DNA of 64,000 nucleotides from Candidatus Multivoradales bacterium (GCA_965223325.1 CBDCWI010000002.1:1248001-1312000); one strand, 5' to 3'; counted from the stretch's first letter, positions 7,146 through 52,220 are shown. The notes: generated by a model not told the origin, from the sequence alone. Made by a program: numbers and translations.

Positions 7146-7225
7146 TCACCCACCCGCCTGGTACTCCACCTGCGGTAGCGTGATCGCCTCTCGCAACGTT
7201 CATTCATTCCTCGGAGGCGCTCGCT

Positions 7226-13746: not shown

Positions 13747-13747
13747 A

Positions 13748-14545: not shown

Positions 14546-14721
14546 CGGGCCCACACCCTGCGGGCGAGCCTTCCACGCATCGCAACAGGTGCATACTCCG
14601 CGGTGGCGACCCCGGAAACGTATGATTGAGGGGCCGGCTCGCGCAGTCGGTCCTGCCCGTTTCCGCATCCCCGCGGCCCCACCCCCTCCTCAGCCTGACT
14701 CCCAGAAGGGCCTTAGCCTCC

Positions 14722-32106: not shown

Positions 32107-33459
32107 TCAACTGCGGCCGGCGAGCCACTCCTGACCGACATGAGAGATGACCAGGCGACGTTTACCGCGTCCACTGAGAGGGATTTCGGCGGTCCAGTCG
32201 ATGGTGATCTCGACCTGGCCGCGAGTAGCGGCCAGGATCTCGCGGCAGAGCGTAGCCTCCACCAGGGCACGGTCGGCGCCCTCCCGGGCGACCAGACGCA
32301 CCCGCAGGTCCTCTAGTGTTTCCTGAACCACCTGATAGTGCTCCAGGTGCTCTTCGAGCGACTTCATCAGCACCACGAAGAAGTGCATGACCAGAAAGGT
32401 CTCGTCGGGCAGAACGATCAGGTCGGGTACCCGCCCCTCGACACGCTCGAGCATCGGGAGGGTCCGGCCGCAGAGGCAGGTGGCGTCAGGCGGTGCCGGC
32501 ACCGCCAGATCACCGACTTCGTAGCGCACCAGGGGCATGGCGAAGTTGTCCAGCTGCGTGAGCACGACGCGCCCGAGCTCCCCGGGCGCACACGGGCCGT
32601 CTGCTCCTAGCACCTCGAAGATCGCGTTCTCGGGGTGGAGGTGGTAACGGGTTTCGCTGTGCGCGCACTGGCTCGCCACGTGGAAGCCTTCGCCGCCGGC
32701 CCCGTAGTAGTCGAAAACCCGCTGTTTGAAGACCCGCTCGATCGCTTCACGATAGGGCGTGTAGAGGGCATCACCGGTAGCCGTGATGCCATCGACCTCC
32801 GGCACCTCGAGGCCGAGAGACTCGAAGCGCCGAGCCACGGCATAGAGCGACGACGAAAAACCGTTCAGATGCGCTGGCTCACTGCCCCTGGGCGACAGGG
32901 CCCTTTGAACCGCACGAGCGTCGAGATCATCGGCGTTCATCGTCAGGTAGGCGCAACGAAACAAGCGATCCTGGAGTTTCTTCTTCCAACCCAGGCGGGG
33001 ATTCAGGTTCACCGTCACGTAGCGATCGCCCGGCGAGTACCCAGCCCAGTTCCAGATGCGAAAACGCAGCGCCCAGAACCAACTCTCCTGGGTCGCCGTG
33101 CGATAAAAGACCATCGGTCGCCCGGTCGAGCCACTGGTGGCATAGCGATAGACCTTCTCGTTCGTTTCGAGCGGAAAGAGGCCTTCCGGCGCATCGCGAA
33201 GGTCGTCCTTGGAAACCACCGGCAGCCCCGACAAGAGCTCGTAGTCCGAAGGAGGCCCTTCGCGGTTCTCGAACCCGCGATAGAAGGCACTCTTCTGACT
33301 TGTGGCGAGAAGCCGCTCGAGCTTTTCTTCCTGGCGTGCCCTCTGCTTCTCTCGCGACAGATTCTCCGACTCGTGCAACTGGCCGATGAGCGGCACAATG
33401 TGCGTGCCATTCGCCCGATCGAGAAGCGGGAACACCAGCTTCTCGAAAACACCACTCAC
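32107..33459 (-). CDS. Phenylacetate-CoA ligase/CapK-like adenylate-forming enzyme
   Basis: TSGSTGRP, YYGAGG, AMPLVRYEVGD, VEGR, GKRR motifs. Confidence 0.85.
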   Translation of the reverse strand: MSGVFEKLVFPLLDRANGTHIVPLIGQLHESENLSREKQRARQEEKLERLLATSQKSAFYRGFENREGPPSDYELLSGLPVVSKDDLRDAPEGLFPLETNEKVYRYATSGSTGRPMVFYRTATQESWFWALRFRIWNWAGYSPGDRYVTVNLNPRLGWKKKLQDRLFRCAYLTMNADDLDARAVQRALSPRGSEPAHLNGFSSSLYAVARRFESLGLEVPEVDGITATGDALYTPYREAIERVFKQRVFDYYGAGGEGFHVASQCAHSETRYHLHPENAIFEVLGADGPCAPGELGRVVLTQLDNFAMPLVRYEVGDLAVPAPPDATCLCGRTLPMLERVEGRVPDLIVLPDETFLVMHFFVVLMKSLEEHLEHYQVVQETLEDLRVRLVAREGADRALVEATLCREILAATRGQVEITIDWTAEIPLSGRGKRRLVISHVGQEWLAGRS

Positions 33460-35036
33460 TCGTGCTCCTTTGCCCCGGCGAGCGCTTCGAGCAGGGCCGA
33501 ATCGATGCGTGCCTTGACCGTGCGCCGGTCGAGGCCGAGGCGGCGGGCTGCTTCGACGTAGCTGCCGGCCTTCGAGTACACCAACGTCGTGTACCCCGAG
33601 AGCAGCTCGTCGGCGTCGAGATCACCTACCTCGAGGCGCGCCAGAAAGCCGGCGAGACCCGGCGGGTCGACCGCCTCGCCGCCGGCCGGGTGGTACGAGC
33701 CGCGCACCAGGACGTTGCGTACGCACTGCTCGAGCTCTCGGAAGTTTCCGCGCCATGGATACTCCGACCCGAGGTTCTGCCGAACGAAAGCCGTCGTCTC
33801 GGCGGCCAGCGAATCGGCCTCGGAGGCGCCCACCATACGCCCGGCGATGGTCGCGATCAGCCGACCGAGCTCAGACGGTGCATCGTCGAGTTGCTCGCGC
33901 AAGGACGGCGTGCGCACGATGTCCGAGCAGATTCGGTAGTAGAAGTCTTCGCGCATGCGGCCTTCTGCCATCTCGACCTCGGGCTCACGGTTGGTCGCCG
34001 CAATCAGTTTGCCGCGGAAGCGCCGGGTCTCGGTATCGCCGAGGCGCTGGAAGGTCCTGGTCTGGAGAACCCGCAACAGCTTTACCTGGATGGTTTCATC
34101 GATCTCGCCGATCTCGTCGAGAAACACCGAGCCGAGTGGTGGACAGACCTCGAACCAGCCCTCCCGGTCGGCCACTGCGCCGGTGAAGGCGCCACGCTGG
34201 TGGCCAAAGAGTTCCGACTCGATCAAGGTCGGCGAGAGGGCCACCAGGTTGAGGGCGAAAAAGGCTCCCTCGAAGTCTTCGGCAAATGCCTGCCTGGCCT
34301 GGTCAAAGGGAATGAATCGAGAAAGACCGATGGCCCGCGCAACTAATTCCTTACCCGTACCTGAGGGGCCGGTAATCAGCGTCGTGACATCGCCCATGCG
34401 GTCATAGAGGCCACGGCGGTAGCGGCGCATGTCGTGAGTGAAGATCGACTGCCAAACCGCCGAGCGCAGCGCCGCCGCCGGTTTCGAGGCACCAGCGAAG
34501 GTGCCGAAGACGAAGTGAAAGGCCCGTCGCAGCTGGAAGAACCACCCGAGGCACAACGAGGCGTCGAGGCGCTCGACCATCCCGAGGTCTGGATCGTTGA
34601 TCCAATGGTGAATCTGCTTCTCGAGCGCCGGGAAGATCGCCACCGGGCGGGTCGATGCCACACCGCCGCGCGCAATCAGTGCGCCGAGATCACCCTGATG
34701 CAGGTTATAGAGGTGGTAGAGAACGAGATCACGCCACAGGCGGCGCGTCTCCTCGCTGGGCCTATCGCCCTTTCTGTTCTTTTCTACCAGTCGAGGGCGC
34801 GCACGCTCGAGCAGCGCCGCGAGCCGCTGGTCGATCAAGGGTAGGTTGGGATTCTTCTCGTAGTCACTGGCCCGGTGCCAGACCTCCTGACCGAGCTCCT
34901 GGTACTGGCCGCCAAGAGCTTCGCGCTCGAGGGACACGCGCTCGACGGAGAAAGGATCAGCGTGTGACAAGCGCGCCACCGCCTCGACGAAAGCCCGGTC
35001 GGAACCGGCAAACAGATGGGGCGCAGCACTAGCCAT
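33456..35036 (-). CDS. Sigma-54-dependent transcriptional activator (bEBP) with an unrecognised N-terminal domain
   Basis: GPSGTGKELVA, ESELFGH..GAFTGA, FLDEIGE, QVKLLRVLQ, WRGNFREL; C-terminal Fis-type HTH. Confidence 0.92.
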   Translation of the reverse strand: MASAAPHLFAGSDRAFVEAVARLSHADPFSVERVSLEREALGGQYQELGQEVWHRASDYEKNPNLPLIDQRLAALLERARPRLVEKNRKGDRPSEETRRLWRDLVLYHLYNLHQGDLGALIARGGVASTRPVAIFPALEKQIHHWINDPDLGMVERLDASLCLGWFFQLRRAFHFVFGTFAGASKPAAALRSAVWQSIFTHDMRRYRRGLYDRMGDVTTLITGPSGTGKELVARAIGLSRFIPFDQARQAFAEDFEGAFFALNLVALSPTLIESELFGHQRGAFTGAVADREGWFEVCPPLGSVFLDEIGEIDETIQVKLLRVLQTRTFQRLGDTETRRFRGKLIAATNREPEVEMAEGRMREDFYYRICSDIVRTPSLREQLDDAPSELGRLIATIAGRMVGASEADSLAAETTAFVRQNLGSEYPWRGNFRELEQCVRNVLVRGSYHPAGGEAVDPPGLAGFLARLEVGDLDADELLSGYTTLVYSKAGSYVEAARRLGLDRRTVKARIDSALLEALAGAKEHE

Positions 35037-35967: not shown

Positions 35968-37251
35968 CTAGTACCGGAGAACCGAGAACAGCATCGCCTT
36001 TTGAACGTCAGTCGAGAATCCATCGGCGCTGTAGTCGGCGATCTTGAGACCGACGACCTGGCCGCCGGGCGCCTTCCAGGTCACGAGAGCATCGACTTCG
36101 GTGCCGTAGTCGCCCGAGGTGTTCTCGGCCGAAAAGTCGTGGTAGGCGGCCTGTACATTCCACACACCCTTGCCCCAGCCAAGCTTCAGGTAGAGGTCTT
36201 CGAGACCGTTGGCAGGAGTTGCGAGGAACTTGTCGGCGAAGCCGTTGAACTTGTGCAGTGTGGCAAGCGGGGTGATGAACGCCGTCGTCCCGTCGCCTTC
36301 GAGAACTTCGGTCCCGAGGCGAGCGCTCCAGGCACCCTGTTTGAGCCCGCCCTCGACCCGCAGGTAGTCGTGCGAGAGATCGGCGGCGTTGTCGCCATAG
36401 TCGTCCTGGCGGGCGAACTGTAGATCGTAGAGGCCCGCAAGACCAGAGGAACCGAGCGCGCTCGAGCCCGTGAAGCTCACCGCGACGGTCGCCCGTGAGC
36501 GCCCAGAAAGAGCCGCGGCGTCGTAGTCCAGCCACTGCCCCGAAATCCCCAACACTCCCCCACCGAACGCACGTCGCACGTCGGCTAGATGTCCCGTCAG
36601 GTCCTGCCGAGCGCCGGTGATCGTATGCACCCGGTCGAGGAAGACGTAGGAGAGCTTCCAGGCCTCCTTGCCTTCTCCGATGGCGGTATCGATCGACACG
36701 GCATCGAAACTCTGGTGGTTCTGACGCCAGGCAACCGCGCCAACGAAACGCTGGTCGCCGAGGTTCTTCTCGAACCGCCCGGCCTTGACCGCCACCTGGC
36801 CGCCGAAGTCGTAGGCCACCCAGGCCTGGTTGATCTCGGTGAGATCGGGGTCGGCGACCACGGGACGATTGGTCACACCGTTGTGAAGGGAGCGCGCACC
36901 AACATTGTTGTAGAGCTCCTCGCGCGGGCCACTGACGTCTTCGACCTCCAGCCCGAAGGTAAAGCCGCTCAACGGGGCACTCTGGAACACGAAACCGGAA
37001 CGCAGGGTGAGCGCCTCGCCATCGCGGCCTTCGAAACGCGCGGCGTCGTCATCGACAAACTCGAAGCGCGGTCTGAAGGAGACACCCCACTTGCCCTTCT
37101 TGAAAGTCTCCCCGAGGGTCGAAGCCACTTCATCCTCACTGTCCGATGCAGCCTGGGCAGCCGGAGGGGCGACCAGCGCGAGCGAGAAGAGGAGGGCAAG
37201 AGAGGCCAGGGCCGACGATCGGACAGTCCAACGAATGGTTCTATAAAGCAT
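35968..37251 (-). CDS. Outer-membrane beta-barrel, alginate-export (AlgE-like) family porin
   Basis: Signal peptide; TEINQAW, QRFVGAVAWRQN.QSFDA, TPLATLHKFNG.AD.F motifs; terminal aromatic residue; AGGAG before the ATG. Confidence 0.82.
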   Translation of the reverse strand: MLYRTIRWTVRSSALASLALLFSLALVAPPAAQAASDSEDEVASTLGETFKKGKWGVSFRPRFEFVDDDAARFEGRDGEALTLRSGFVFQSAPLSGFTFGLEVEDVSGPREELYNNVGARSLHNGVTNRPVVADPDLTEINQAWVAYDFGGQVAVKAGRFEKNLGDQRFVGAVAWRQNHQSFDAVSIDTAIGEGKEAWKLSYVFLDRVHTITGARQDLTGHLADVRRAFGGGVLGISGQWLDYDAAALSGRSRATVAVSFTGSSALGSSGLAGLYDLQFARQDDYGDNAADLSHDYLRVEGGLKQGAWSARLGTEVLEGDGTTAFITPLATLHKFNGFADKFLATPANGLEDLYLKLGWGKGVWNVQAAYHDFSAENTSGDYGTEVDALVTWKAPGGQVVGLKIADYSADGFSTDVQKAMLFSVLRY

Positions 37252-37326
37252 TGAAAAACTCCTGAGGGTGTGCACCCTACGTCCGAGAGGTAAGAAAAGG
37301 GAAAGGCGAAAAGGCGAGAAGAGGAA

Positions 37327-37925: not shown

Positions 37926-40340
37926 TCAGACCCGTTCGACGCGCACGGCGCACTTCTTGAAGTCAGGCTCTTTCGAGATGTTGTCCAGCGCGTCGAGTGT
38001 GAGCTCGTTGATCAACTTCGACTCGTCGAAGAAGGGCACGAAGACCGATCCTTCGGGCGGTGCCCCCCGCCCGTCGACGGCGGCTTGCAGTTCGATGGTG
38101 CCGCGGCGACTCGTTACCCGCACTCGCGACCCGTCCTGCACGCCGAGGCGCGCCGCATCGGCTGGATTGAGCTCGACGTAGGCCTCGGGTACCGCCTGGT
38201 GCAGCTGCCGTACGCGGCGGGTCATCGAACCGCTGTGCCAGTGTTCGAGGACCCGGCCGGTCGAGAGCCACAGAGGGTACTCGTCGTCTGGGATCTCGGC
38301 TGGCGGGTGGTAGGGGCGCAGCCAGAAGGCCGCCTTTTCGCCATACCCCTTGGCCTTGTAAAAGTGCACACCCTCGTTCTTCTTGACGTATGGGTCGATC
38401 CCGGCGGCGTAGCGATAGGGGGTTTCGCGCCCGTCGACAACCGGCCAGCGCAACCCACGGGTGGCCTTCAGATCCTCATAGGAGGCGAGATCTTTGCCGA
38501 CCCCGAGGGTGAAGCTCCGATACTCCTCGTACATCGCCTCGTGCCAGTCCCCCTCCCAGGGGAACAGGTACCCCATGCCCATGCGCCTGGCCACTTCGAC
38601 GATCTGCTCGGCGTCCTCGACCGCCTCGCCGGGAGGCTCGATCATCTTGTTCCAGTGCTGGGTGCGCCGCTCGGTGTTCCCGAAGACACCCTCGCGCTCG
38701 ATCCACGCGGCGGCAGGGAGCACGAGGTCGGCCATCTCGGTGGTCGGTGTCGGATAGATCTCGGAGACCACCACGAACCGACCGTCACCCGGCTGGCGCT
38801 CGAAACGATGCAGGTTGGGCAGCGACAACCACGGGTTGGTGGTCTGAATCCACATTGCTTTGACGTCACCGCGCCGAAGCGCACGAAACATGTCGACTGC
38901 GTGGTACCCGGGCTTGGGATTGATCGTCCCGGGTTCGAGGCCCCAGATCTCCTCAGTCTTCTTGCGGTGGTCGGGATTCATCACCACCATGTCGGCCGGC
39001 AGTCGATTCGACAGCGTGCCCACTTCGCGTGCCGTTCCGCACGCCGAAGGTTGCCCGGTGAGACTGAAGGGGTTGGCACCGGGGCGGCCGATCTTACCGG
39101 TGATCAGATGGAGGTCGTTGATCAGGTTGTTCATCCAGGTGCCGCGAGTGTGCTGGTTGACCCCCATGCACCACAGGCTGACCGTGCCGCGGCTGCGGGC
39201 CCCGTAGATCTCTGCCAGCGAGTGGATGGTCGCAGCAGGCACTCCGGTGATCTCACTCGTGCGCTCGGGGCTGTAGTCCGCCAGGAAGGTACGCAGCTCG
39301 GCGAGTGAACTGTCACGGCCCTTGTCTTTCCAGGTGTAGCGCTCGGCCTGGTCGCCGTAGCAGCCATAGCCGATCTCGTCCTGGTCTTCGATGCCGCGCT
39401 TCCAGACCACGTTCTCGTCGATGAACGCCTTGTCGATGGCGTCGTTCTCGAGCAGGAGATGCATGATGCCGTTGGCCAGCGCCAGATCGGTGCCGGGCTT
39501 GAACTGCACATAGAGATCGGCATACTGCGAGGTCGCCGTCCGCCGTGTCGCGAGGTCGATGATGCGAACGTCGGGGCGCTGGCGCCGGGCCTCGAGAATG
39601 CGGCTGAACAAGACCGGATGCGCCTCGGCCATGTTGTTGCCCCACAGCACGAAATCGTCGCCAACCTCGAAGTCTTCGTAGCAGCCCATCGGCTCGTCGC
39701 TCTGGAACTGGGTCACGAAACCCATCACCGCGCTCGCCATGCACAGACGCGCATTCGGGTCGATGTTGTTCGAACGCATTCCGCCTTTGACCCACTTGAG
39801 CGCCGCATACCCATCGTGCACGGTCCACTGTCCTGAGCCATAGACGGCCACCGACTCGGGACCACTCTCGGCCAAGGCCTCCTGGAACTTCTCGGCGATC
39901 AGATCGTAGGCCTCGTCCCAGGAAATGCGTTCGAGCTTCCCGTTGGCATTGCGGCGCTGCGGGTACAAGAGGCGGTCTTCGCCGTAGAGAAGACCCGGCA
40001 GGTGGTAGCCCTTGACACACAAGAGACCCCTGTTGACAGGGTTCTTGGTGTCGCCGCGCACGGCTACGGCGCGCCCATCCTGGACCCCGACCTCGACCCC
40101 ACAGCCGGCTCCACAGAAGCGACACGGGGCCTTCTGCCAGTTCACACCCTCACGATCGAGAGCCGCGACGTCGGTGTCGTCGGCGGCTGCCTCGATCTCT
40201 CGCGCTCGTTCCTGGTCGCTGCAAGAGAAGGCCGCTGCGGCCGCACCACCGGTACCAAGAACAGTCAGGAATCGACGTCGGTCGACACCACGTTTCGGAT
40301 CGTTCGGATTCTTCATCGGGTTCGTTTTCCGGAAGGCCAT
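37926..40340 (-). CDS. napA: Periplasmic nitrate reductase catalytic subunit
   Basis: Tat motif DRRRFL; 4Fe-4S CRFCGAGC..LCVKG; NARLCMASA; SLTGQPSACGTAREVG; terminal PDFKKCAVRV. Confidence 0.95.
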   Translation of the reverse strand: MAFRKTNPMKNPNDPKRGVDRRRFLTVLGTGGAAAAAFSCSDQERAREIEAAADDTDVAALDREGVNWQKAPCRFCGAGCGVEVGVQDGRAVAVRGDTKNPVNRGLLCVKGYHLPGLLYGEDRLLYPQRRNANGKLERISWDEAYDLIAEKFQEALAESGPESVAVYGSGQWTVHDGYAALKWVKGGMRSNNIDPNARLCMASAVMGFVTQFQSDEPMGCYEDFEVGDDFVLWGNNMAEAHPVLFSRILEARRQRPDVRIIDLATRRTATSQYADLYVQFKPGTDLALANGIMHLLLENDAIDKAFIDENVVWKRGIEDQDEIGYGCYGDQAERYTWKDKGRDSSLAELRTFLADYSPERTSEITGVPAATIHSLAEIYGARSRGTVSLWCMGVNQHTRGTWMNNLINDLHLITGKIGRPGANPFSLTGQPSACGTAREVGTLSNRLPADMVVMNPDHRKKTEEIWGLEPGTINPKPGYHAVDMFRALRRGDVKAMWIQTTNPWLSLPNLHRFERQPGDGRFVVVSEIYPTPTTEMADLVLPAAAWIEREGVFGNTERRTQHWNKMIEPPGEAVEDAEQIVEVARRMGMGYLFPWEGDWHEAMYEEYRSFTLGVGKDLASYEDLKATRGLRWPVVDGRETPYRYAAGIDPYVKKNEGVHFYKAKGYGEKAAFWLRPYHPPAEIPDDEYPLWLSTGRVLEHWHSGSMTRRVRQLHQAVPEAYVELNPADAARLGVQDGSRVRVTSRRGTIELQAAVDGRGAPPEGSVFVPFFDESKLINELTLDALDNISKEPDFKKCAVRVERV

Positions 40341-40391: not shown

Positions 40392-42044
40392 TCAGGGCCC
40401 GCTCGGAGCTGAGCCCTGTCCGTAGCGTTCCTGCATCTGACGACGGATCTGTTCCATCTGGTCTGTCGCACCCTGTTCGAACCAGGCGTGCTCGGGACGT
40501 GCAAGGAGGTCATTGATGACCTTCTCGGCCCGGGCCGCACCAGCGGCGTTGCCGTGCGAACGCCCATGGGCGACGAGCTCACGCGCCTGCGGGATGAGCT
40601 CCATGTAGAAGCGCTCGGCAACTTCATACATGCCGTGCCAATGGGTGTAGTCGGGAGCCATCATCGCAGCGCCATGGCGAGCGCGCCGGCCCTCGTGATG
40701 CCAGAGGTAGAACCAGGTCCACTCGATCTCTTCGTCGAATTGCGTGTCGGAGATCAGGCCGTTGCTGCGCAGCGCAGTCACAATGTCGCGACCGGGCTTG
40801 GCGAACTTCTCGTTGTAGAGAATCACCAGGTTGTCGTACTGCTTGTAGAAGCCCTCGATGTAGGAAGGCGTGTGGCAGTGCGAGCACACTTCCTTCATCC
40901 GATTGCGCTTCGAGGTCGCCGTATCGACGGTCAGCTTCTGGCGTTCGATCGGGTCTGTCTCCTTGACCAGGTGGCCGTTGATGTCGGTATCCATCACCAG
41001 CGACACCGGCGGGCGGTTGGTCCACGAAATGCGAGTCCCAGGATCGTGGGTCACCTCGCCGCCGTTGCGACTGTGGCCCGACATGTGGCAGGTGGCGCAG
41101 GTCGGCGCTTCAGAGTAGTCCTCGCCGAGGACCCAGTTCTCACCGTCGAGATCCATCTCATCCTTGAGATCGCGATAGGCGATCCCGTGTTTGGACTCTT
41201 CGAAGATCTCCTTCTGCGGATGATCTGGGCCGAGGTGACACTTGCCGCAGTTCTCAGGCTGCCGCGCACGCCGCGGCGAAAAGTCATGCCGGCTGTGACA
41301 TGCCGAGCAGGAACCGCGCGACCCGTCGAGGTTCAGGCGACCGATGCCCGTGTTGGGCCAGGTGCCTTGATGGAAAACTGGCCGGCCGTTGTCGGCCCGT
41401 TTGATACGCGCCACCGCGGCGGTGTTGGTTGGCTTTCCGTCCTCGTCCGGCTCGAGCTCATCGACCGTAATGCGACTTCCGTCGGCGGCCTCGAGCGCCA
41501 CCTTCGAACCGTGACACTGCTGGCAGCCGCTGAACGCCGAGGCACCGCCCTCGACCAACTCCATCGGGCGACCGGGGGTTGGCGAGTGAGGGTTGAAACT
41601 CCCGCGCGCACCCTCGACCGTTTCGGCGAGGAAGTTGTCGAGCGAGGCCAGGATGTTGCCGGCCGCCGCATGGTGACTGCTTTCGAACTGGTGCGCCTCT
41701 TCCTGGTGACACTGCCCGCAGTCGCGTGGTGTGACGACGGTCGCGATCAGGCTGCCGTAGTGCGAGTGCGCATCCGCCTCGCCCTCGTTGGCCTGATGGC
41801 AGTCATAGCACCCCACGCCACTGTGGGCGTGCTGGCTGCCTTCCCAGTGCTCGTTGATGCCGGGCGTGGTCTGACCATGGCAATCGACACACGACGCCGA
41901 TGAAGCCGGCACCGCGACTTTGACGGTCGTTACTCCGGCCTCTTCGGCCTTGCGGATGACTTCCATCCACTGCACGAAGACCAGCGACAGCAGGAAGACA
42001 GCCGCCAGGATGATGATGATCTTTCTTTTCTGATTCAGTGTCAT
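40392..42044 (-). CDS. Membrane-anchored octaheme HAO-family cytochrome c
   Basis: Eight motifs: CVDCH, CYDCH, CGQCH, CQQCH, CSACH, CGKCH, CATCH, CSHCH; GPDH after heme 6; C-terminal GAAMMAPDYTHWHG; N-terminal TM helix. Confidence 0.88.
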   Translation of the reverse strand: MTLNQKRKIIIILAAVFLLSLVFVQWMEVIRKAEEAGVTTVKVAVPASSASCVDCHGQTTPGINEHWEGSQHAHSGVGCYDCHQANEGEADAHSHYGSLIATVVTPRDCGQCHQEEAHQFESSHHAAAGNILASLDNFLAETVEGARGSFNPHSPTPGRPMELVEGGASAFSGCQQCHGSKVALEAADGSRITVDELEPDEDGKPTNTAAVARIKRADNGRPVFHQGTWPNTGIGRLNLDGSRGSCSACHSRHDFSPRRARQPENCGKCHLGPDHPQKEIFEESKHGIAYRDLKDEMDLDGENWVLGEDYSEAPTCATCHMSGHSRNGGEVTHDPGTRISWTNRPPVSLVMDTDINGHLVKETDPIERQKLTVDTATSKRNRMKEVCSHCHTPSYIEGFYKQYDNLVILYNEKFAKPGRDIVTALRSNGLISDTQFDEEIEWTWFYLWHHEGRRARHGAAMMAPDYTHWHGMYEVAERFYMELIPQARELVAHGRSHGNAAGAARAEKVINDLLARPEHAWFEQGATDQMEQIRRQMQERYGQGSAPSGP

Positions 42045-42060: not shown

Positions 42061-43152
42061 TCAGTGGGCGACGGCTGCCTCCCAGATCGTCAGGATGGTG
42101 ATTGCGAACACGCCGACAATGCCAATCCAGACAGTCGCTTCTCGAAAACGTGTGTTCTTGCGGATCCAGGCGTCGATGAAGGGCCAGGTGAACATGACGA
42201 ACACGATGAAGCCCATCGACAGAATCGCAGCGGTTCCCGAGAACAGCTTCAACCAACGAAACGTCACATAGAAGAACCACTCGGGCTTGATCACGTCGGG
42301 GGTGACCAAGGGATCGGCCTTGGGGCCGAGGGTAGCCGGGAAAACAGTCGCCAGGAAAGACAAGAGGATCATCAGGGTGAGGCCGGCCATGACCTCGGAG
42401 AGCACGTGATCCGGGAAGAAGTTGAAGGTCTTCTTGGGCCTTTCTTTCTCGTCCTCGAACTCGAACTCGGTCACGCCCTGCAGCCGAATGATCGCAATGT
42501 GCACCACGATCAGCAGAATGAGGGTGATCGGAAGAACGGCGGCGTGGAGGACGTAGAAGCGCGGCAGAGTGTTGTCGTTGTAGACCTCTCCGCCGAGCAT
42601 GAAGTCGCGCATCAGGCCGCCAACGATCGGAACGTTGGCGGCGATATTGGCGCCGACCGTCGCACCCCAGAAGCTGAGCTGCTCGAACACCAGGCTGTAG
42701 CCGGTGAAGCCGAGCATCAACGACGTCAACAAGAGGCACATACCCACCATCCAGTTGAGCTCGCGCGGCTTTCTGAAGGCGCCAGTGAAATAGACCCGCA
42801 TCTGATGGAGCACGACCGCCGCAATCATCAGCGTCGCACCCCAGCGATGCAGGCTACGCAAGAACCACCCATACGACGCCTCGTTGGTGATGTAGAGCAC
42901 CGACTCGTAGGCGCTCTCTGGCGACGGCTTGTAGTAGAGCGCCAGCAGAATGCCGGTGACAATCTGCACCACGAACAGATAGGCCGGGGTGCCGCCGAGT
43001 GCGAACCACCACCGCTTGAGGTGGTTTGGGACCGGTTCATTGGTGAGCTCGCGCAGCTGCTCCATCGAGAAGGGCAGACGTTCCTGAATCCACTGGGCGG
43101 CGCGAGCTCCAGTCCTCCTGGTGAGCGAACGTTCGTGAGCCGGAGTCGTCAT
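42061..43152 (-). CDS. Cytochrome b of a Rieske/cytochrome b complex (b and subunit IV unsplit)
   Basis: RSLHRWGA..LHQMRV, KPRELNW, RFYVLH..VHI, IKPEWFF motifs. Confidence 0.92.
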   Translation of the reverse strand: MTTPAHERSLTRRTGARAAQWIQERLPFSMEQLRELTNEPVPNHLKRWWFALGGTPAYLFVVQIVTGILLALYYKPSPESAYESVLYITNEASYGWFLRSLHRWGATLMIAAVVLHQMRVYFTGAFRKPRELNWMVGMCLLLTSLMLGFTGYSLVFEQLSFWGATVGANIAANVPIVGGLMRDFMLGGEVYNDNTLPRFYVLHAAVLPITLILLIVVHIAIIRLQGVTEFEFEDEKERPKKTFNFFPDHVLSEVMAGLTLMILLSFLATVFPATLGPKADPLVTPDVIKPEWFFYVTFRWLKLFSGTAAILSMGFIVFVMFTWPFIDAWIRKNTRFREATVWIGIVGVFAITILTIWEAAVAH

Positions 43153-43162
43153 CTAACAGCCC

Positions 43163-43816
43163 CTAGGCGCTCTCGTCGTTGGCGGTCTGGTCGGCCACAG
43201 AGTGGGACGCCCGCTGCAGGTCCGGAAACAGGCACGGGTCATGACCAGGACCGATGGGGCAGGTCCCACGAAACACCTCGGGCGCTTCGATGGTGCCTTC
43301 GCCCGCCGCGACCTCGGCAGCTTCGAGCTCGATGAACAACAGGCCGTTCTCGACCTTGAGTGGGTAGGTCGGCAGGCTCTGTCCGGCTTCGGCCGGAGGA
43401 CCGCTAGTCGCCACCCCGGCAGGGTCGAACACGCCGTTGTGACACGGGCAAAAGAAGCGGTCGTTGGCAGCTTCCCAGTGCACCTGACAGCCGAGATGCG
43501 GGCAGGTAGACGACAGCGCAACCAACGAGTCGTCGCCCTCGCCCTGGCGGGCAATGTTGATCGTCGAGCCCAAAGGTGTACGGAAAACAATTGCCTCACC
43601 GGCAGCGATCCTCTCGGCGCCCGTGACGTACATCCAACGCGAGGTTTCGCCCGCCGCCGGATAGGCAAAGCGAGCCATGAAGACGGCCAGGGTGCCGTAG
43701 GCCGCCGCCAGTGCGCCGAACATCGAAACGCCAACTGCCCGGTGCAGAAAACCGCGGCGATCCTGCTCATCGGCCGGGTTGCTGGCCGGAAGGTGGTCAG
43801 AATGAGTGGTGTTCAC
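43163..43816 (-). CDS. Rieske 2Fe-2S subunit of a Rieske/cytochrome b complex
   Basis: Tat motif DRRGFL plus TM helix; CPHLGC and CPCHNGVF boxes; GPP. Confidence 0.92.
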   Translation of the reverse strand: MNTTHSDHLPASNPADEQDRRGFLHRAVGVSMFGALAAAYGTLAVFMARFAYPAAGETSRWMYVTGAERIAAGEAIVFRTPLGSTINIARQGEGDDSLVALSSTCPHLGCQVHWEAANDRFFCPCHNGVFDPAGVATSGPPAEAGQSLPTYPLKVENGLLFIELEAAEVAAGEGTIEAPEVFRGTCPIGPGHDPCLFPDLQRASHSVADQTANDESA

Positions 43817-43883: not shown

Positions 43884-45533
43884 TCAGAAGGGCCTGAAGC
43901 CCGGCGAACCGAAGCGCTCCAGCGAGAAGAGGTGGTACATCGGATAGGCGTAGGCGATGATGATCAAAAGCACGGCCACTGCGGTCCACAAACCGAGGCG
44001 GTCCCACAGAAGCTCGCCACCGGTGACCTGCTCGGAGGCATGGAGCGGCCTGGCGAATTCGATCGAGGGCGGGTCGATATGTTTGCCCCAGATCATCGTC
44101 GCAGCGACCACGGCGATAAAGCACAGTGAGCTCACAAACAGCACCATGCCGCCGAGAGCCGAGAACATCGTCAGGTTCTCCCAGGCCTTCGAGGCCTCCG
44201 AGCCGGCGAAGTTCGAACTGTAGACCCGCCTCGGTTCACCGAGCAGCCCGGTGACGTGACTCGTCCAGGCGAACATCACCATGCCGAAGAACCACAGGTA
44301 GGGCTGAATCGTCGCGACCTCCCGCAGCATCAATGCGCGACCACTCAAACGCGGCAGGAGCCAGTACGAGGCACCCATGAACGAAAGCGCCACAGCAGTA
44401 CCAACGGTCAGATGAAAGTGCCCATGGATCCAGGCGGTGTTGTGCACCATCGTGTTCATGGCAAACGCCGCGTTGATCGCGCCGCCCCAACCACCGACGG
44501 CAAAGGTGATCATCGCCAGGGCGATGCACGCGAAGAACGGCTCGCGCCAGGGCAGCTTCCAGATCCAGTTGAACAAACCTGTAGCGCCGCGCAGGCGACC
44601 AGCGATCTCGAGCGAAGCGATGACTGTAAAGGCGGTGATCAGGCTCGGAAACAGGATCGCGTAGGTGGTCGCGGTATGGACCAGCTTCCACGACGCCGGA
44701 ATCCCCGGGTCGGTGAACTGATGGTGGAAGCCGACCGGAGTCGAGAACAGGATGAACATCACGAACACCACTCGGGCCAAGCGGTCACTGAACAAACGCC
44801 CCCCGGCGACCTCGGGCAGCACCGTGTACCAGAGCATGTAGGTCGGCAACAACCAGAAGTAGGTCAGCGGGTGACCGAACCACCAGAACCAGGTGCGCGC
44901 GACAATCGGATCGATGCGCTCGATCCACCCCAGAGACCAAGGTACCAGTTGACCAAGCACCTCGGCCGCAAGACCCGAGGTCGCCAGCAGCCAGATGATC
45001 ACCGAGGTGAGCATCGCGTGCATGGCAAGTGGCAGAGGCTCGACCTTGCCGCCGTTGCGGTTCTCGCGACGCCAGGCAAGCCAGGTGCGGATCATCACCA
45101 CGCACCAGATCCACGACCCAACGATCAGAAGGGTGGCGCCGATGTAGAACAGCGGGTGGGCCTGGAGCGGCGGATAGAACGTGTAGAGAACCGTCGCCTC
45201 GCCACTCAGAATCGTAAGAGCAGTAAGCAGTGAGCCAATCGTTGCCACCCAGAACGCACTCCACCCCATCGCCTCGCTCTCGAGCCGGCCGAGCGTCCGC
45301 CGAGCGATGACATAGCCGAGGCCCATGATGAAGAACGTCGTAAAAACCAGGGCCATCAAGACACCGTGCGCGGTCACCGAGACGTAGTAGACCTCGGGCG
45401 AACGAAACGCCACATCGAGGTCGGCACGCGAAAGCGACTGCATAACCGCCATCAAGGCGCCAATGCCAAAGGCTCCAATCGAGACGCCAAAGTTGGCGAG
45501 CGGCAGCTGATTGCGCCGCGTGGCTTCGTTCAT
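43884..45533 (-). CDS. cbaA: B-family (ba3-type) heme-copper oxidase subunit I
   Basis: HGVLMALVFTT, WWFGHPLTYFWLLP, PVGFHHQF, PSLITAFT, GHFHLTVG, PRR motifs. Confidence 0.92.
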   Translation of the reverse strand: MNEATRRNQLPLANFGVSIGAFGIGALMAVMQSLSRADLDVAFRSPEVYYVSVTAHGVLMALVFTTFFIMGLGYVIARRTLGRLESEAMGWSAFWVATIGSLLTALTILSGEATVLYTFYPPLQAHPLFYIGATLLIVGSWIWCVVMIRTWLAWRRENRNGGKVEPLPLAMHAMLTSVIIWLLATSGLAAEVLGQLVPWSLGWIERIDPIVARTWFWWFGHPLTYFWLLPTYMLWYTVLPEVAGGRLFSDRLARVVFVMFILFSTPVGFHHQFTDPGIPASWKLVHTATTYAILFPSLITAFTVIASLEIAGRLRGATGLFNWIWKLPWREPFFACIALAMITFAVGGWGGAINAAFAMNTMVHNTAWIHGHFHLTVGTAVALSFMGASYWLLPRLSGRALMLREVATIQPYLWFFGMVMFAWTSHVTGLLGEPRRVYSSNFAGSEASKAWENLTMFSALGGMVLFVSSLCFIAVVAATMIWGKHIDPPSIEFARPLHASEQVTGGELLWDRLGLWTAVAVLLIIIAYAYPMYHLFSLERFGSPGFRPF

Positions 45534-46021
45534 GAACCAGCCCCCGCCGCTCCAGCCCCCAGCACAATCAGCTTGCCCTGCATCATGTGGTGAGAGAGGC
45601 CGCAGAACTCGTTACACACAATCAGGTACTCGCCGGGCTTCTCCAGTTCGACACTGAACTCGCTGACGTAGCCGGGCGTCACCGTGACATTGGCGTTGGT
45701 TCCAACAATCTGAAAACCGTGGATCACATCTGGGCTGGTGATGCGAAACCGCACCAGTCCGGGCGATACTCGAATCACCCCTGGCCTGAAGGCGAACATT
45801 TCGGCCACCGCGATGACCAGAGTCGAGCCGTCCGGCTGTTGCTCGACGCGAGGATCGGCGAACTCGGTCTCGGTTCGCACAAGAAGCGGATCAATGGTCT
45901 CGACGTGGCTCGGAGGCTCGACCGCGTGAAGAACAGCGGCAATACACACCGTCGCCAGGAACGACGCGATCATCAGGATCGAGAACCAGATCCACCAACG
46001 CTCATAGAGGTCGACCTTCAT
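45530..46021 (-). CDS. cbaB: B-family oxidase subunit II (CuA)
   Basis: Single TM helix; SPDVIHGF..CNEFCGLSHHMM. Confidence 0.92.
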   Translation of the reverse strand: MKVDLYERWWIWFSILMIASFLATVCIAAVLHAVEPPSHVETIDPLLVRTETEFADPRVEQQPDGSTLVIAVAEMFAFRPGVIRVSPGLVRFRITSPDVIHGFQIVGTNANVTVTPGYVSEFSVELEKPGEYLIVCNEFCGLSHHMMQGKLIVLGAGAAGAGS

Positions 46022-46109
46022 CGCCCGCTCCAGGTGCACCTGGCCGCCAGGCCCCTAGCCACCCTGCCATGCAGAGCAGAAGGTCTATCGGTCATCGCAC
46101 GCGTTTCTC

Positions 46110-47784: not shown

Positions 47785-49026
47785 TCAGTCGGCACGACCG
47801 AAGAGCAGAACTCCGTTTCCACCGCCAAAACCGAAACTGTTCTTCATCGCCACCCGGACTGGGAGCTCGGACGACTGGCCACCGACCAGCGGCACCTCGC
47901 AGGCGGGATCGGGGGACTCGAGGTTGAGATTCGGCGGCACCCGCCCTGCCTCGAGACCGAGGATCGTGGCGATGCCTTCGAGAACTCCCGAGGCACCCAG
48001 GGTGTGACCGAAGTACGACTTGTTGGCTCCCACGGGCGCATTGTCGGCGGCCGGCCCGAGTGCGGCGCGCACCGACTGAGCCTCGGTGACATCGTTAGCG
48101 GGCGTGCCGGTGCCATGCGCGTTGACGAATCCCACCTCGGCCGCATCGATCCGAGCGTCCTGGAGGGCGGCTCGAATCGCGCGCACCTGGCCAGCCTCAT
48201 CGGGCGCGGTCATGTGCGTGGCATCGGACGACTCACCGTAGCCGAGCACCCGCGCACGAACGGCGGCTCCGCGCGCTGCCGCAACCTCGGCCGCTTCGAG
48301 CAGCACCGCGCCGCCGCCCTCGCCGAGCAAAGTACCCTCGCGCGCGGAATCGAAAGGACGCACGGCGCGCTTTGGATCCGCGATCGGCGAGAGCACCCCG
48401 AGATTGTTCCAGACCCCGTAGTAGAACGGGTCGAGCCCAGCCTCGACGCCGCCGCAGAGCACCGCGTCGACATAGCCGTCGCGAATCATGCGCAACCCCT
48501 GACCGATGGCGTTGGTCGAAGAGGTGCACGCCGAGACGATCACCTGATTGGTGCCGCCCAGCCGGTGGTGAATCGACACCCCGGCCGAGATCGAGTTCGC
48601 CATGCACGCGGGAATCGTACTCGGGCGCATGCCCTTCGGCCCCTTCTCACCGAACCTCTTGTGCGACTCGTAAAGCGTCGTCGCAGCGCCGCTGCCACTG
48701 CCCCAGACGCTGGCAATCGGCAGAACCTCCGTACCCACGTTCTCTTCCGCCGGGTCGCGCCAACCGGCTTCGACCAGGGCCTGGCGTGCAACTTCGACGG
48801 CGTAGCGCAGGGTGCGGTCGGCGCGACGCAGTTTGCCCTTCTGCCGCTCATCGAGCGCGCTCAGGTCGACTTCGGCGGCGTTCTGCACCTTGTTGAGCGA
48901 CGCATCGAACACTGTGATCGGGCCAAGACCCGTCTCGCCACCAAGCAGATTGCTCCACACCGTATCGACATCGTTGCCGATCGCCGACACGATGCCCACC
49001 CCGGTCACCACCACCTCCCGCGCCAC
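47785..49026 (-). CDS. fabF: Beta-ketoacyl-ACP synthase II-like
   Basis: VVVTGVG, SACTSS, NAHGTGT, KSYFGHTLGA, NSFGFGG (Cys-His-His intact). Confidence 0.9.
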   Translation of the reverse strand: MAREVVVTGVGIVSAIGNDVDTVWSNLLGGETGLGPITVFDASLNKVQNAAEVDLSALDERQKGKLRRADRTLRYAVEVARQALVEAGWRDPAEENVGTEVLPIASVWGSGSGAATTLYESHKRFGEKGPKGMRPSTIPACMANSISAGVSIHHRLGGTNQVIVSACTSSTNAIGQGLRMIRDGYVDAVLCGGVEAGLDPFYYGVWNNLGVLSPIADPKRAVRPFDSAREGTLLGEGGGAVLLEAAEVAAARGAAVRARVLGYGESSDATHMTAPDEAGQVRAIRAALQDARIDAAEVGFVNAHGTGTPANDVTEAQSVRAALGPAADNAPVGANKSYFGHTLGASGVLEGIATILGLEAGRVPPNLNLESPDPACEVPLVGGQSSELPVRVAMKNSFGFGGGNGVLLFGRAD

Positions 49027-49814
49027 TAGGAACTCCTCATCCACAGCCCGCCGTCGACGTGCAGGACCTGACCGGTGACGTAGGAGGCGCGTTCCGAAAG
49101 CAGGAAACAGACGACCTCGGCAATCTCTTCTGGACTCGCCAGGCGCCCGAGGGGAATCTGCAGGTTGTCGCGATTCTCCAGTGGCAAGGGGGCCGTCATG
49201 TCGGTGTCGACAAAGCCAGGAGACACGGCGTTACAGCGCACGCCGAAGCGCGCCGCCTCGAGCGCCAGGCTGTAGGTGAGGTTGACCAGCGCCGCCTTCG
49301 ACGCCGCATAGTCGGCACCCATCCACTTGCCGGGCCCGTGCGCCGACGTCGAGGCGATGTTGACGATCGCTCCCCGCTTCGCCTTGCGCATCAACTTGTA
49401 GGCCGTCTGGCTCGCCAACATCGCCGCCTCGACGTTGACCGCAAATGTCTGGCGCCAGGAATCGAGATCGAGGCCACGAAAGGCGACCGCTCGACCGCCG
49501 CCGGCGTTGTTGACGAGGCCGGAGAGACCGCCAGCAGCCGCATTGAAGTCCTCCACCAGCCCGATGGCCGAGGCGGCGTCCGCAAGGTCTGCGGTGAGCG
49601 CGATCGTCTTTCCCGCTTCGACGTGCTCGCCCGCGGCGACTTCCTCGGCGATCTCGGCACACGCTCGAGCAACCGCACTGGCGTTGCGTCCGTGCACTCC
49701 GACCGTCGCACCGGCAAGCGCCAGCTTCCTCGCCACGGCGTTGCCAATTCCACGCGTCGAGCCGGTGACCAGGACTCGCTGACCCGCCAGGCTGTCAGTT
49801 GTAGGACCGGTCAC
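49026..49814 (-). CDS. fabG: 3-oxoacyl-ACP reductase (SDR)
   Basis: TGSTRGIG, NNAG, YAASK, PGFVDTDM motifs; clustered with fabF and ACP. Confidence 0.85.
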   Translation of the reverse strand: MTGPTTDSLAGQRVLVTGSTRGIGNAVARKLALAGATVGVHGRNASAVARACAEIAEEVAAGEHVEAGKTIALTADLADAASAIGLVEDFNAAAGGLSGLVNNAGGGRAVAFRGLDLDSWRQTFAVNVEAAMLASQTAYKLMRKAKRGAIVNIASTSAHGPGKWMGADYAASKAALVNLTYSLALEAARFGVRCNAVSPGFVDTDMTAPLPLENRDNLQIPLGRLASPEEIAEVVCFLLSERASYVTGQVLHVDGGLWMRSS

Positions 49815-51699: not shown

Positions 51700-52220
51700 A
51701 TGCTGCTCATCAGATGGCGGTAGGTGTAGGCCAGCAGGCGACCGGAAACGATCGCGGCCGTCCACGAAGCGAGCGACACCCAGGCGATGGGAACCAGACC
51801 GCGACGACTCTTTGCCGACGCGGCGCCAGGATCCCGCAGGTGGCCTTCGAGTCGGCGCGCGATCAGCACCGCCACCGCCACGCACAGCATCTTGAAGAAG
51901 AACATCGGGTTGGTCAGTGCCTTCGCCGGGTAGGCCACAAAGAGGAGTACACCGCTCAGCGCACTGGCGAGGAAACTCACCCACAGGATCGGAAAGAACC
52001 TCCTCATCGGCGGCAAAGGCAGCCGCGGCGCAATCCCGAGGATGCGGAGGTCGATGGCGATGCTCACTCCGGCGACGACTGCCAGAGCCAGAGTGTGCAG
52101 AGTGAGAACGCCGGGGAAGGCGAAGACCGACAAGGACTCACGCATCCAGACGCTGATCGCCGTCGCTTCGATCCAGCCGCTGACCTCGACCCAAGGAAAC
52201 GCCTGCACAGCGAGCCTCAC
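51696..52220 (-). CDS. DUF6644-like 4-TM membrane protein (paralog)
   Basis: TLHTLAL..DLRILG..NPMFFFK..GRLLAY. Confidence 0.75.
   Translation of the reverse strand: MRLAVQAFPWVEVSGWIEATAISVWMRESLSVFAFPGVLTLHTLALAVVAGVSIAIDLRILGIAPRLPLPPMRRFFPILWVSFLASALSGVLLFVAYPAKALTNPMFFFKMLCVAVAVLIARRLEGHLRDPGAASAKSRRGLVPIAWVSLASWTAAIVSGRLLAYTYRHLMSSM

Follow-up and report, generated by a model that had tools for sequence, protein, structure and literature searches.

Octaheme cytochromes c of the hydroxylamine oxidoreductase (HAO) family carry heme 4 as their 5-coordinate catalytic heme (PMC8042395), and in the enzyme of Nitrosomonas europaea (NeHAO) the named functional residues include Asp267/His268 (PMC3814345), which are listed together with Tyr467 both there and in a recent preprint (bioRxiv 10.64898/2026.07.28.741245); these and the other published systems are cited here for what the passages covered of each source state. 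Assayed HAOs lacking the Tyr, HAOr and the epsilon-HAOs, reduced nitrite and did not oxidise hydroxylamine (PMC8042395), and reductive anammox homologues of HAO are reported to carry Trp in place of this Tyr (bioRxiv 10.64898/2026.07.28.741245). HAOr of Kuenenia stuttgartiensis (Kustc0458) has no heme-Tyr cross-link (PMC8042395), and the Ignicoccus hospitalis octaheme cytochrome (IhOCC), called an octaheme nitrite reductase, has no P460 heme (PMC9250108). In the anammox complex R/b-3, described without activity data, an HAO-type octaheme is fed by a Rieske/cytochrome b complex (PMC12485887). For Nitrospira it was hypothesised that the quinone pool drives nitrite reduction to ammonia (PMC6311188, PMC12342949, PMC6606698), and an octaheme encoded beside Rieske/cytochrome b genes was expressed with nitrite as sole nitrogen source (PMC6606698); for Caldithrix abyssi, a Rieske/cytochrome b complex was proposed to donate to the octaheme and/or NapM (PMC5317091). 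The present analysis concerns a 64,000-nucleotide stretch of DNA from a Candidatus Multivoradales bacterium (GCA_965223325.1, CBDCWI010000002.1:1248001-1312000), referred to as the window, in which a minus-strand gene at 40392..42044 encodes a 550-residue octaheme cytochrome c of the HAO/IhOCC family (P0001). The protein is the third gene product of a conserved Rieske-cytochrome b unit and has no Tyr on the column aligned with the NeHAO cross-link.

With a little more weight for than against, the octaheme is judged from its sequence context and modelled structure to be the periplasmic catalytic, electron-accepting subunit of a dedicated Rieske/cytochrome b complex, which would act as a quinol-driven nitrite reductase with ammonium as the likelier product. 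Substrate, product and electron path are what we infer; the family, gene order and alignments are observed.

The octaheme cytochrome and its family

The gene was called from its open reading frame (ORF), Pfam and PDB matches, an AlphaFold2 model and Foldseek. A sequence-only reading made before this analysis had placed it correctly at these coordinates and had not noted that it lies on the minus strand; a plus-strand reading of 40392-42044 was ruled out by the stops present in it. The ATG is at 42044, separated by 16 nt from the cytochrome b stop codon (42061-42063) and preceded by GGAG at a distance of 7 nt. This spacing, the eight CxxCH motifs, the N-terminal anchor, the GPDH after heme 6 and the C-terminal MAPDYTHWHG had all been pointed out by that reading, and each of them is present.

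The comparisons below use a profile built from 45 relatives (A1), a 79-row family alignment (A2) and a narrower clade profile (A4), together with 80 loci kept among at least 578 encoding stretches in species-representative genomes; where neighbouring genes are counted over fewer than 80 loci, the denominators are the loci with enough flanking DNA. The eight CxxCH heme-binding motifs, starting at C52, C79, C109, C174, C246, C266, C316 and C387 (span 40872..41891, minus strand), are all invariant in A2, eight CxxCH were also found in 74 of 74 full-length relatives from the fetched loci, and the protein contains no CxxCK motif. The heme 4 motif CQQCH (residues 174-178; 41511..41525, minus strand), presumed to hold the catalytic heme, pairs in profile A1 with the NeHAO CTMCH motif that precedes chain residue 238. 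Immediately after the heme 6 motif CGKCH (266-270) stands GPDH (G272-H275), in which the pair Asp274-His275 (41220..41225, minus strand) aligns with NeHAO D267/H268 in both the single-sequence and the profile A1 alignments; LGPDH is kept in 79 of the 80 loci. MAPDYTHWHG (residues 462-471; 40632..40661, minus strand) is, in alignments A1 and A4, the counterpart of the Tyr cross-link loop of oxidative HAOs, and it recurs as MMAPDY[T/A/V][H/Q]WHG in every one of the 80 loci. Judged from these alignments, chance occurrence of the motifs can be excluded, because their positions are conserved in a family that counts more than 7,997 relatives in a database.

Membership of the HAO/IhOCC octaheme family, which the sequence-only reading had proposed, is secure by profile comparison with solved structures and by predicted fold, the two being in agreement. 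The protein matches Pfam PF13447 at 7.3e-23 (81.6 bits against a cut-off of 21.9). As a single sequence its PDB matches are IhOCC (4qo5, 3.7e-41), Kuenenia Kustc0458 (6h5l, 1.1e-23) and Nitrosomonas HAO (about 2e-16); with profile A1 these become 3.7e-102 for 4qo5 (positions 35-419), 3e-51 for 6h5l and 6e-51 for NeHAO. The AlphaFold2 model built on A2 has a mean predicted local distance difference test (pLDDT) of 94.4 and a predicted template-modelling score of 0.87, with one helix at the N-terminus (3-35) and long helices towards the C-terminus (393-427, 439-460, 464-496). Foldseek against the PDB places IhOCC 4qo5 first (6.3e-21, template-modelling (TM) score 0.62/0.66) and 6h5l next (1.1e-12), followed by Nitrosomonas HAO, anammox HAOs and hydrazine dehydrogenase (HDH), so that ranks 1-10 are all IhOCC, HAO or HDH chains.

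The lysine-ligated octaheme and pentaheme nitrite reductases reach at best the 1e-6 level in the profile A1 search, over a short N-terminal stretch (ONR chains 1.4e-06, only positions 45-125), and ONR and NrfA enter the Foldseek list only from E 2e-3, with TM scores of 0.27-0.33. With no CxxCK, a short weak sequence match and a low TM score, the protein does not match this ONR/NrfA family. TaNiR of Trichlorobacter ammonificans is not an HAO-like enzyme: it is an octaheme of the CxxCK kind (PMC12142623), and its fold (8rv0) matches poorly at E 1.2e-2. The protein also falls below the curated hydrazine dehydrogenase cut-off (NCBIfam NF052343 hydrazine_HDH, 62.1 bits against 900), and no cytochrome c1 or f family is among its Pfam and NCBIfam matches.

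In the AlphaFold2 model residues 3-35 (41940..42038, minus strand) form a helix that is predicted to be an uncleaved membrane anchor followed by an amphipathic stretch. The N-terminus has a KRK stretch and then hydrophobic residues 9-26, and the pattern MtL..Kr..i..L...Fl.SLvfVQwmE is conserved in 68 sequences, with an identity of 0.59 for residues 9-26 versus 0.63 for residues 46-130, the first heme domain. The conserved N-terminal 45 residues include polar positions within the hydrophobic helix (conserved are F17, S20, L21, V24, Q25 and E28), and such conservation would be unusual for a cleaved signal peptide. A comparable anchor occurs in only some sister clusters, others having ordinary signal peptides.

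The cross-link position

NeHAO numbering was confirmed in the profile A1 alignment, where D267/H268 fall on D274/H275 and the Tyr of PGGWTYTEG is residue 467. From the conserved Pro to the conserved Gly there are nine residues in Nitrosomonas HAO and eight here (PDYTHWHG), so that the alignment of this loop turns on where a one-residue gap is placed. Profile A1 puts the extra residue before Trp465, which brings NeHAO Tyr467 onto His468 and Trp465 onto Tyr466. Under profile A4 the gap is shifted, and the Phe of IhOCC (in QDWTTFKRG) lies on Trp469; the nine-residue Pro-Gly spacing is common to IhOCC and Nitrosomonas HAO, and because of this shared spacing Tyr467 would correspond to Trp469 under A4, by transitivity through IhOCC. 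The Kustc0458 stretch QQDVSWWWG aligns with APDYTHWHG gap-free in profile A1, and an IhOCC-like relative with the nine-residue spacing (P0221) has a Tyr aligned with His468.

Tyr466 itself is off the cross-link column in every alignment, where it pairs with NeHAO W465, the IhOCC Trp and the Kustc0458 Val, and sister clades have F, W, I, V, D, H or E at its position. Y466, W469, H470 and G471 do not vary within the clade, and 79 of 80 loci retain H468. The column of the distal NeHAO Tyr334 holds an invariant Arg344, which by alignment is a clade-specific active-site difference.

From the alignments we conclude that the cross-link Tyr is absent and that His468 or Trp469 apparently takes its place, with the uncertainty of a one-residue gap. 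The earlier assignment of Trp to this position is thus borne out under A4 (Trp469, via IhOCC) and contradicted under A1, where His468 occupies it; neither profile places a Tyr on the Tyr467 column. A reductive role is a reasonable reading because no Tyr stands on that column.

A conserved Rieske/cytochrome b unit

The gene directly upstream encodes a 363-residue cytochrome b (P0002; 42061..43152, minus strand) with a b6-like N-terminal part and a subunit-IV-like C-terminal part, as recognised by Pfam (PF00033 1.1e-52, PF00032 2.7e-09) and NCBIfam (cytochrome b6 5.9e-64, subunit IV 4.2e-07). PEWF is found at 290-293, and H102, H116, H203 and H218 are invariant. Before it lies the gene for a 217-residue Rieske [2Fe-2S] protein with a twin-arginine motif (P0275; 43163..43816, minus strand; Pfam PF00355 2.6e-11), whose sequence carries DRRGFL, CPHLGC and CPCH, the cluster ligands being invariant in alignment A5. 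The sequence-only reading had taken the preceding gene for cytochrome b and assigned the octaheme to the cytochrome c1 position of a Rieske/b unit; the domain matches and the Rieske ligands uphold the first assignment, and gene order elsewhere upholds the second. Cytochrome b is directly upstream of the octaheme in 71 of 73 loci, and of the 69 informative loci all but L038 and L057 (67 of 69) have both Rieske and cytochrome b upstream, the gap between cytochrome b and octaheme having a median of 24 nt and being at most 60 nt in 45 of 50 loci. A 205-residue ATG ORF overlapping the Rieske gene (43153-43770, minus strand) was set aside as an off-frame artefact of high G+C, its translation being rich in Arg, Ala and Pro.

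In five loci (L050, L063, L064, L065 and L069, each around 6000-8000) the cytochrome b match comes in two separated pieces of 35-53% identity. These form a supported subclade of Planctomycetota with one bin labelled Alphaproteobacteria, and their Rieske match is weaker too; the sequences point to a split or remodelled cytochrome b in this subclade.

Physical association was addressed with a fold-based binding test on cytochrome b (alignment A3), the Rieske protein (A5) and octaheme residues 1-230 (A4). The score was 0.79 versus 0.12 for the best of 3 controls, the calibration being approximate for a run with its own alignments and three chains (run contact agreement at least 0%, partner pLDDT at least 66); among known cases, 116 of 157 solved complexes attain the mark of this test, as do 2 of 215 mismatched pairs. 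The confidently modelled interface brings octaheme residues 1-38 against residues 107-123, residues 338-360 and the PEWF loop of cytochrome b, and the model thereby lends support to the N-terminal helix docking there. In the solved bc1 and b6f complexes the c1 or f subunits are anchored C-terminally, and because of this difference a pass from model memory seems unlikely.

Distribution of the clade

In a word-indexed database at least 7,997 relatives were found among 8,000 scored candidates. The 120 relatives listed are all at least 70% identical, and several of them, from Acidobacteria, Thermoanaerobaculia and 'Deltaproteobacteria' metagenome-assembled genomes (MAGs), are labelled hydroxylamine oxidoreductase/dehydrogenase or multiheme cytochrome. 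An exhaustive search of a representative library gave 1,935 matches at E <=1e-3 and 257 at <=1e-30, in which the best full-length match is 65% identical and the next full-length matches are at most 52%. The octaheme is a member of a tight clade. The 80 loci come from Acidobacteriota (Thermoanaerobaculia, Vicinamibacterales, 'Multivoradales'), Gemmatimonadota, non-anammox Planctomycetota, Eiseniibacteriota, Binatota, Chlorobiota, Omnitrophota and others, with octaheme identities of 65-79% across these phyla. The MAG label is missing from at least one carrier record (CP011806, 'Acidobacteria bacterium Mor1'). A search with the sister protein P0131 returned MAG names only (Phycisphaerae, Myxococcales, Binatia and a Cyanobacteria bin).

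A tree was made of 68 clade sequences and 5 outgroup rows, 65 rows being scored for napA. The window octaheme groups with 11 rows, mostly Thermoanaerobaculia/Acidobacteriota, with a Shimodaira-Hasegawa-like approximate likelihood ratio (SH-aLRT) support of 99. A ketoacyl synthase gene of the window (47785-49044, 6 kb from the octaheme) has its named best hits in Thermoanaerobaculia/Acidobacteriota at 63-64% and a best database match of 67%. The non-anammox host that had been claimed from the sequence therefore holds, on the grouping of the octaheme tree and of this neighbouring housekeeping-type gene and on a G+C content of 61-68%; the organism is probably an acidobacterium of the class Thermoanaerobaculia. 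The octaheme is better conserved across phyla than the ketoacyl synthase is within its own, which suggests that the respiratory module is under strong constraint, horizontally spread, or both.

NapA and the remaining operon genes

On the minus strand the gene order is ba3 oxidase subunits II and I, Rieske, cytochrome b, octaheme, NapA, tetraheme, barrel and sigma-54 activator. The napA and tetraheme genes directly downstream and the ba3-type oxidase operon directly upstream were not part of the earlier reading.

The periplasmic nitrate reductase NapA (P0005, 804 residues; 37926..40340, minus strand) is encoded 51 nt downstream of the octaheme, passes NCBIfam NF010055 with 944.2 bits (equivalog cut-off 904), matches PDB 2nya at 3.5e-241 and has the twin-arginine motif RRRFL. 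It is followed by a tetraheme c-type cytochrome with four CxxCH (P0276; 37327..37953, minus strand), a probable electron donor to NapA that was recognised from its sequence and from Pfam matches (Cytochrome_C7 1e-07; NapB 2.2e-05, just under the cut-off), with no sequence match in the PDB. With its listed GTG start the gene shares 28 nt with the end of napA; starting instead from the ATG at 37914, which is in frame (residue 14, MGPPVF...), it would have an 11-nt gap and a plausible signal peptide. Pfam and NCBIfam scans of the operon stretch found no napB, napC, napG or napH.

NapA lies downstream of the octaheme in 43 of 68 loci and NapA plus tetraheme in 39 of 63, the tetraheme following NapA in 39 of the 40 NapA-bearing loci with at least 3100 nt downstream. 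On the tree napA linkage shows at least nine changes, four of them forced by well-supported branches, and napA is absent downstream in 24 of 65 rows.

Loosely associated with the module is an outer-membrane beta-barrel of the Alginate_exp family (435 residues; 35968..37275, minus strand; Pfam PF13372 9.5e-10), which could serve as a porin for nitrate or nitrite anions; porin-like relatives occur upstream or downstream in 15 of 80 loci and were confirmed by Pfam in L002, L013 and L063. The last gene encodes a sigma-54-dependent activator (526 residues; 33456..35036, minus strand; Pfam PF00158 6.3e-44) with its AAA+ domain at residues 216-370. None of the NifA-, NorR- and RtcR-type NCBIfam models reaches its cut-off, and the first 215 or so residues match no Pfam family; regulation of the module by this activator is possible.

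Upstream are the genes for subunit II (45530..46039, minus strand; Pfam COX2 1.6e-08) and subunit I (43884..45533, minus strand; Pfam COX1 3e-93) of a ba3-type (B-family) heme-copper oxidase, with Thermus ba3 as best PDB match (2.3e-126) and an HPLTY motif. The idea that this enzyme is a nitric oxide (NO) reductase was dropped, since it is closest to Thermus ba3 and shares HP.TY. Between the end of the oxidase operon and the Rieske gene lie 67 nt without a terminator-like signal, and the oxidase is perhaps co-transcribed with the Rieske module, in which case the Rieske/cytochrome b-octaheme complex might also feed the oxidase. Oxidase relatives adjoin the module in 5 of 80 loci (L007, L008, L011, L019 and L021).

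The flanks of 15 of the 80 loci were surveyed with ORFs filtered by G+C at third codon positions, and a Pfam scan of the 114 flank ORFs found no nirK, nirS, nor, nosZ or nrfA. A glutamate dehydrogenase gene lies at most 8 kb from the module in 2 of the 15 loci, both without napA (L062 16174-17580 and L014 2787-4139, both minus strand), which is a weak hint of an ammonium product.

Possible function and alternative explanations

In the proposed scheme, quinol would be oxidised at the Qo site of cytochrome b/Rieske, and one electron would pass via the Rieske cluster into the heme chain of the octaheme and on to heme 4. The octaheme would stand in the gene position of cytochrome c1, to which it is unrelated, with its N-terminal helix packed against cytochrome b. 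Heme 4 would be reductive because the octaheme lacks a P460-forming Tyr, and would most probably reduce nitrite supplied by the adjoining NapA, ammonium being the more likely product. NapA, with no NapB, NapC or NapGH here, would most simply be fed from the same complex through the tetraheme, and the operon as a whole would carry out quinol-coupled, Q-cycle-linked respiration of nitrate to reduced nitrogen. Nitrite is favoured as substrate because NapA passes its equivalog cut-off and follows the octaheme in 43 of 68 loci, and ammonium as product because IhOCC is described as a nitrite reductase, the Nitrospira octaheme is tied to nitrogen assimilation and glutamate dehydrogenase is found in two flanks.

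Several points weigh against this assignment. For no member of the clade is an activity, a spectrum or a structure on record. Alignment of the cross-link site hangs on the one-residue gap that profiles A1 and A4 place differently, and the invariant Tyr466 is only 2-3 residues upstream of the aligned column, as judged by sequence alignment. The binding test departs from its calibration in using its own alignments and three chains, and its score is model confidence rather than measurement. The flanks of the 15 loci hold none of the other nitrogen-cycle genes that would fix the pathway. The published Nitrospira and Caldithrix octahemes are likened to this one by description, the sole lead being a look-alike cluster of the Atlas that is commonest in Nitrospirota. 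Finally, HAOr, the closest assayed anammox relative, gives NO and not ammonium with physiological donors (PMC8042395).

The last point leads to the alternative that survives best, which we nevertheless hold to be unlikely: the same complex, with an octaheme that reduces nitrite by one electron to NO, which has been proposed for both HAOr and Kuste4574, the operon being a nitrate-to-NO front end of denitrification. HAOr makes NO from nitrite without a Tyr cross-link, but it also yields ammonium with a strong reductant (PMC8042395), and Kuste4574, a close HAOr homologue, is a subunit of the anammox Rieske/cytochrome b complex 3 (PMC12485887). Kustc0458 is the second-best solved relative and its QQDVSWWWG needs no gap against APDYTHWHG; the closest solved relative, however, is IhOCC, its E-value being 50 orders of magnitude below that of Kustc0458. 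The name 'Candidatus Kutchimonas denitrificans' has been given to one carrier MAG, yet nor, nirK, nirS and nosZ were found neither in the flanks of the 15 loci nor in the window, and the heme-copper enzyme beside the module belongs to the ba3-type oxidases and is no recognised NO reductase.

It is improbable that the octaheme is a reductase subunit for a substrate other than nitrite, such as hydroxylamine or NO (in detoxification) or a sulfur oxyanion. HAO-family reductases do turn over hydroxylamine and NO as well (PMC8042395), and napA is absent in a third of loci, but where NapA is linked, in 43 of 68 loci, it points to nitrite. Related octahemes reduce sulfite or tetrathionate, although the enzymes concerned, MccA and OTR, have their open heme in the other module (PMC9250108) and are not among the significant Foldseek matches.

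Decidedly improbable is an octaheme that mainly substitutes for c1, as a heme wire that carries electrons from Rieske to NapA (via the tetraheme), and possibly to the ba3 oxidase as well, while catalysing little or nothing itself. Its place in the c1 gene position would suit such a wire, as would a NapA operon without napC, napGH and napB and the oxidase genes 67 nt upstream, with no detectable terminator and recurring in 5 of 80 loci. On the other hand, 24 of 65 rows are without napA and the oxidase is present in only those 5 of 80 loci, yet the octaheme is conserved at 66-79% identity across phyla, and the Asp-His pair in 79 of 80 loci and the invariant R344, Y466, W469 and H470 are hard to explain for a pure wire. 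A terminal enzyme is thus more likely than a mere wire to NapA, because the active-site residues and the conservation persist in the rows without napA.

An oxidative HAO, in which Tyr466 would be cross-linked to heme 4 of a neighbouring subunit, hydroxylamine oxidised and electrons passed into the complex in reverse, is scarcely credible: Tyr466 is invariant in 80 of 80 loci and within 2-3 residues of the aligned column, and JGI and NCBI label many relatives hydroxylamine dehydrogenase/oxidoreductase, but Tyr466 is on the Tyr467 column in neither profile alignment, its position varies in sister clades (F, W, I, V, D, H, E), a three-residue deletion between the conserved Pro and the Tyr would be needed, amo genes were not seen in the window, and we know of no precedent for a Rieske/cytochrome b complex run backwards from hydroxylamine.

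Returning to the quinol-driven nitrite reductase, a more far-reaching form of it seems possible and on the whole doubtful. Here the five genes would make one self-contained, periplasm-facing 'nitrate ammonification respirasome', the octaheme being at once the c1 equivalent, a six-electron nitrite reductase and the hub for NapA; both steps would be driven by a proton-motive Q cycle and not by the non-electrogenic NapC/NrfH, and the module would have been transferred horizontally among Acidobacteriota, Gemmatimonadota, Planctomycetota and other phyla. Were this true, the carriers annotated 'hao' would be a large overlooked guild of energy-efficient nitrate ammonifiers.

Short of that, the label 'hydroxylamine oxidoreductase' on the clade's relatives is probably wrong, and if read as a marker of nitrification it probably gives the wrong direction for a clade found in at least 578 species-level genomes. 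A nitrite reductase wired to Rieske/cytochrome b would, if confirmed, couple the reduction of nitrite (and here also of nitrate) to the Q cycle, and the energy yields now assumed where abundant phyla of soil and sediment ammonify nitrate or denitrify would have to be revised. The main value is practical: a probably wrong label on a very widespread gene is corrected, and a tractable target is offered for how these complexes work, in which, given the high conservation of the clade, one structure or assay could speak for hundreds of genomes.

Other features of the window

Elsewhere in the 64-kb window no other nitrogen-cycle gene was found, and no Rfam RNA family occurs in it. Promoter-like sites number 1 against a shuffled mean of 1.8 and terminator-like sites 13 against 10.4, neither being above shuffled expectation. 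A 571-residue ORF at 52217-53932 (minus strand) is a FolP-FolB-FolK fusion of dihydropteroate synthase, dihydroneopterin aldolase and HPPK. Three long ORFs at 15486-18407 (plus strand), 13211-14668 (minus strand) and 19208-20419 (plus strand), of 973, 485 and 403 residues respectively, have no Pfam match at 1e-5, and some of them may be off-frame artefacts in G+C-rich DNA.

Comparison with known systems

IhOCC (4qo5) is the best match in both sequence and fold, with eight hemes in the same order. It differs in being archaeal and in having 24% identity over the fold alignment, and the aligned solved chain has no counterpart of the N-terminal anchor. In the literature passages covered, no report of a Rieske/cytochrome b partner for IhOCC was found.

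Kuenenia HAOr (Kustc0458, 6h5l) shares an HAO fold without the Tyr cross-link and a C-terminal motif that aligns gap-free, and Kuste4574 resembles the window protein as a membrane-complex subunit with Rieske/cytochrome b (PMC12485887). Both are reductive and anammox-specific and have no NapA linkage, and the similarity of Kustc0458 is below that of IhOCC. In contrast to the window octaheme, HAOr is soluble, paired with a diheme partner, and makes NO (PMC8042395).

Nitrosomonas europaea HAO (1fgj, 4fas) has the octaheme fold, the heme order and the Asp267/His268 pair in common with the window protein. Identity is 16-17%, however, with Tyr467 replaced by what aligns as His468 or Trp469 and Tyr334 by the invariant Arg344, and the window octaheme is predicted to be membrane-anchored and is encoded with a quinol oxidase module, whereas NeHAO is encoded with c554/cM552. 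Cytochromes c1 and f are similar in following Rieske and cytochrome b as the third gene, as presumed acceptor of the Rieske electron and in placing, in the model, one helix against cytochrome b; they are unlike it in lacking homology and in having one heme rather than eight, and the window protein has an N-terminal anchor and a probable catalytic heme. The anchor of cytochrome c1/f is C-terminal.

The novelty implied by the sequence-only reading was overstated, an octaheme beside Rieske/cytochrome b in non-anammox bacteria having been published for Nitrospira (PMC6311188, PMC6606698, PMC12342949) and for Caldithrix abyssi (PMC5317091). In the literature covered, no characterised Rieske/cytochrome b-octaheme complex outside anammox bacteria was found, nor, in searches of a limited library that turned up only survey papers, was any paper describing the Acidobacteriota/Gemmatimonadota octaheme clade or the minimal five-gene form. 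The Nitrospira octaheme (OCC/'ONR') likewise has adjoining Rieske/cytochrome b genes in a non-anammox bacterium (PMC6311188, PMC6606698, PMC12342949, PMC5767232); it differs in being proposed as assimilatory, in a nitrogen-assimilation region without napA in the passages covered, and it also is not biochemically characterised. The Caldithrix abyssi Nap cluster (Cabys_2556-2564) also has napG, napH and napF and another gene order (PMC5317091), whereas the window module consists of Rieske, cytochrome b, octaheme, NapA and tetraheme.

In summary, the window protein adds to an arrangement that is already described from genomes and biochemically uncharacterised. Compared by gene content, it is the Caldithrix cluster that likewise brings NapA, a tetraheme, Rieske, cytochrome b and an HAO-type octaheme (epsilon-Hao) together in one locus (PMC5317091).

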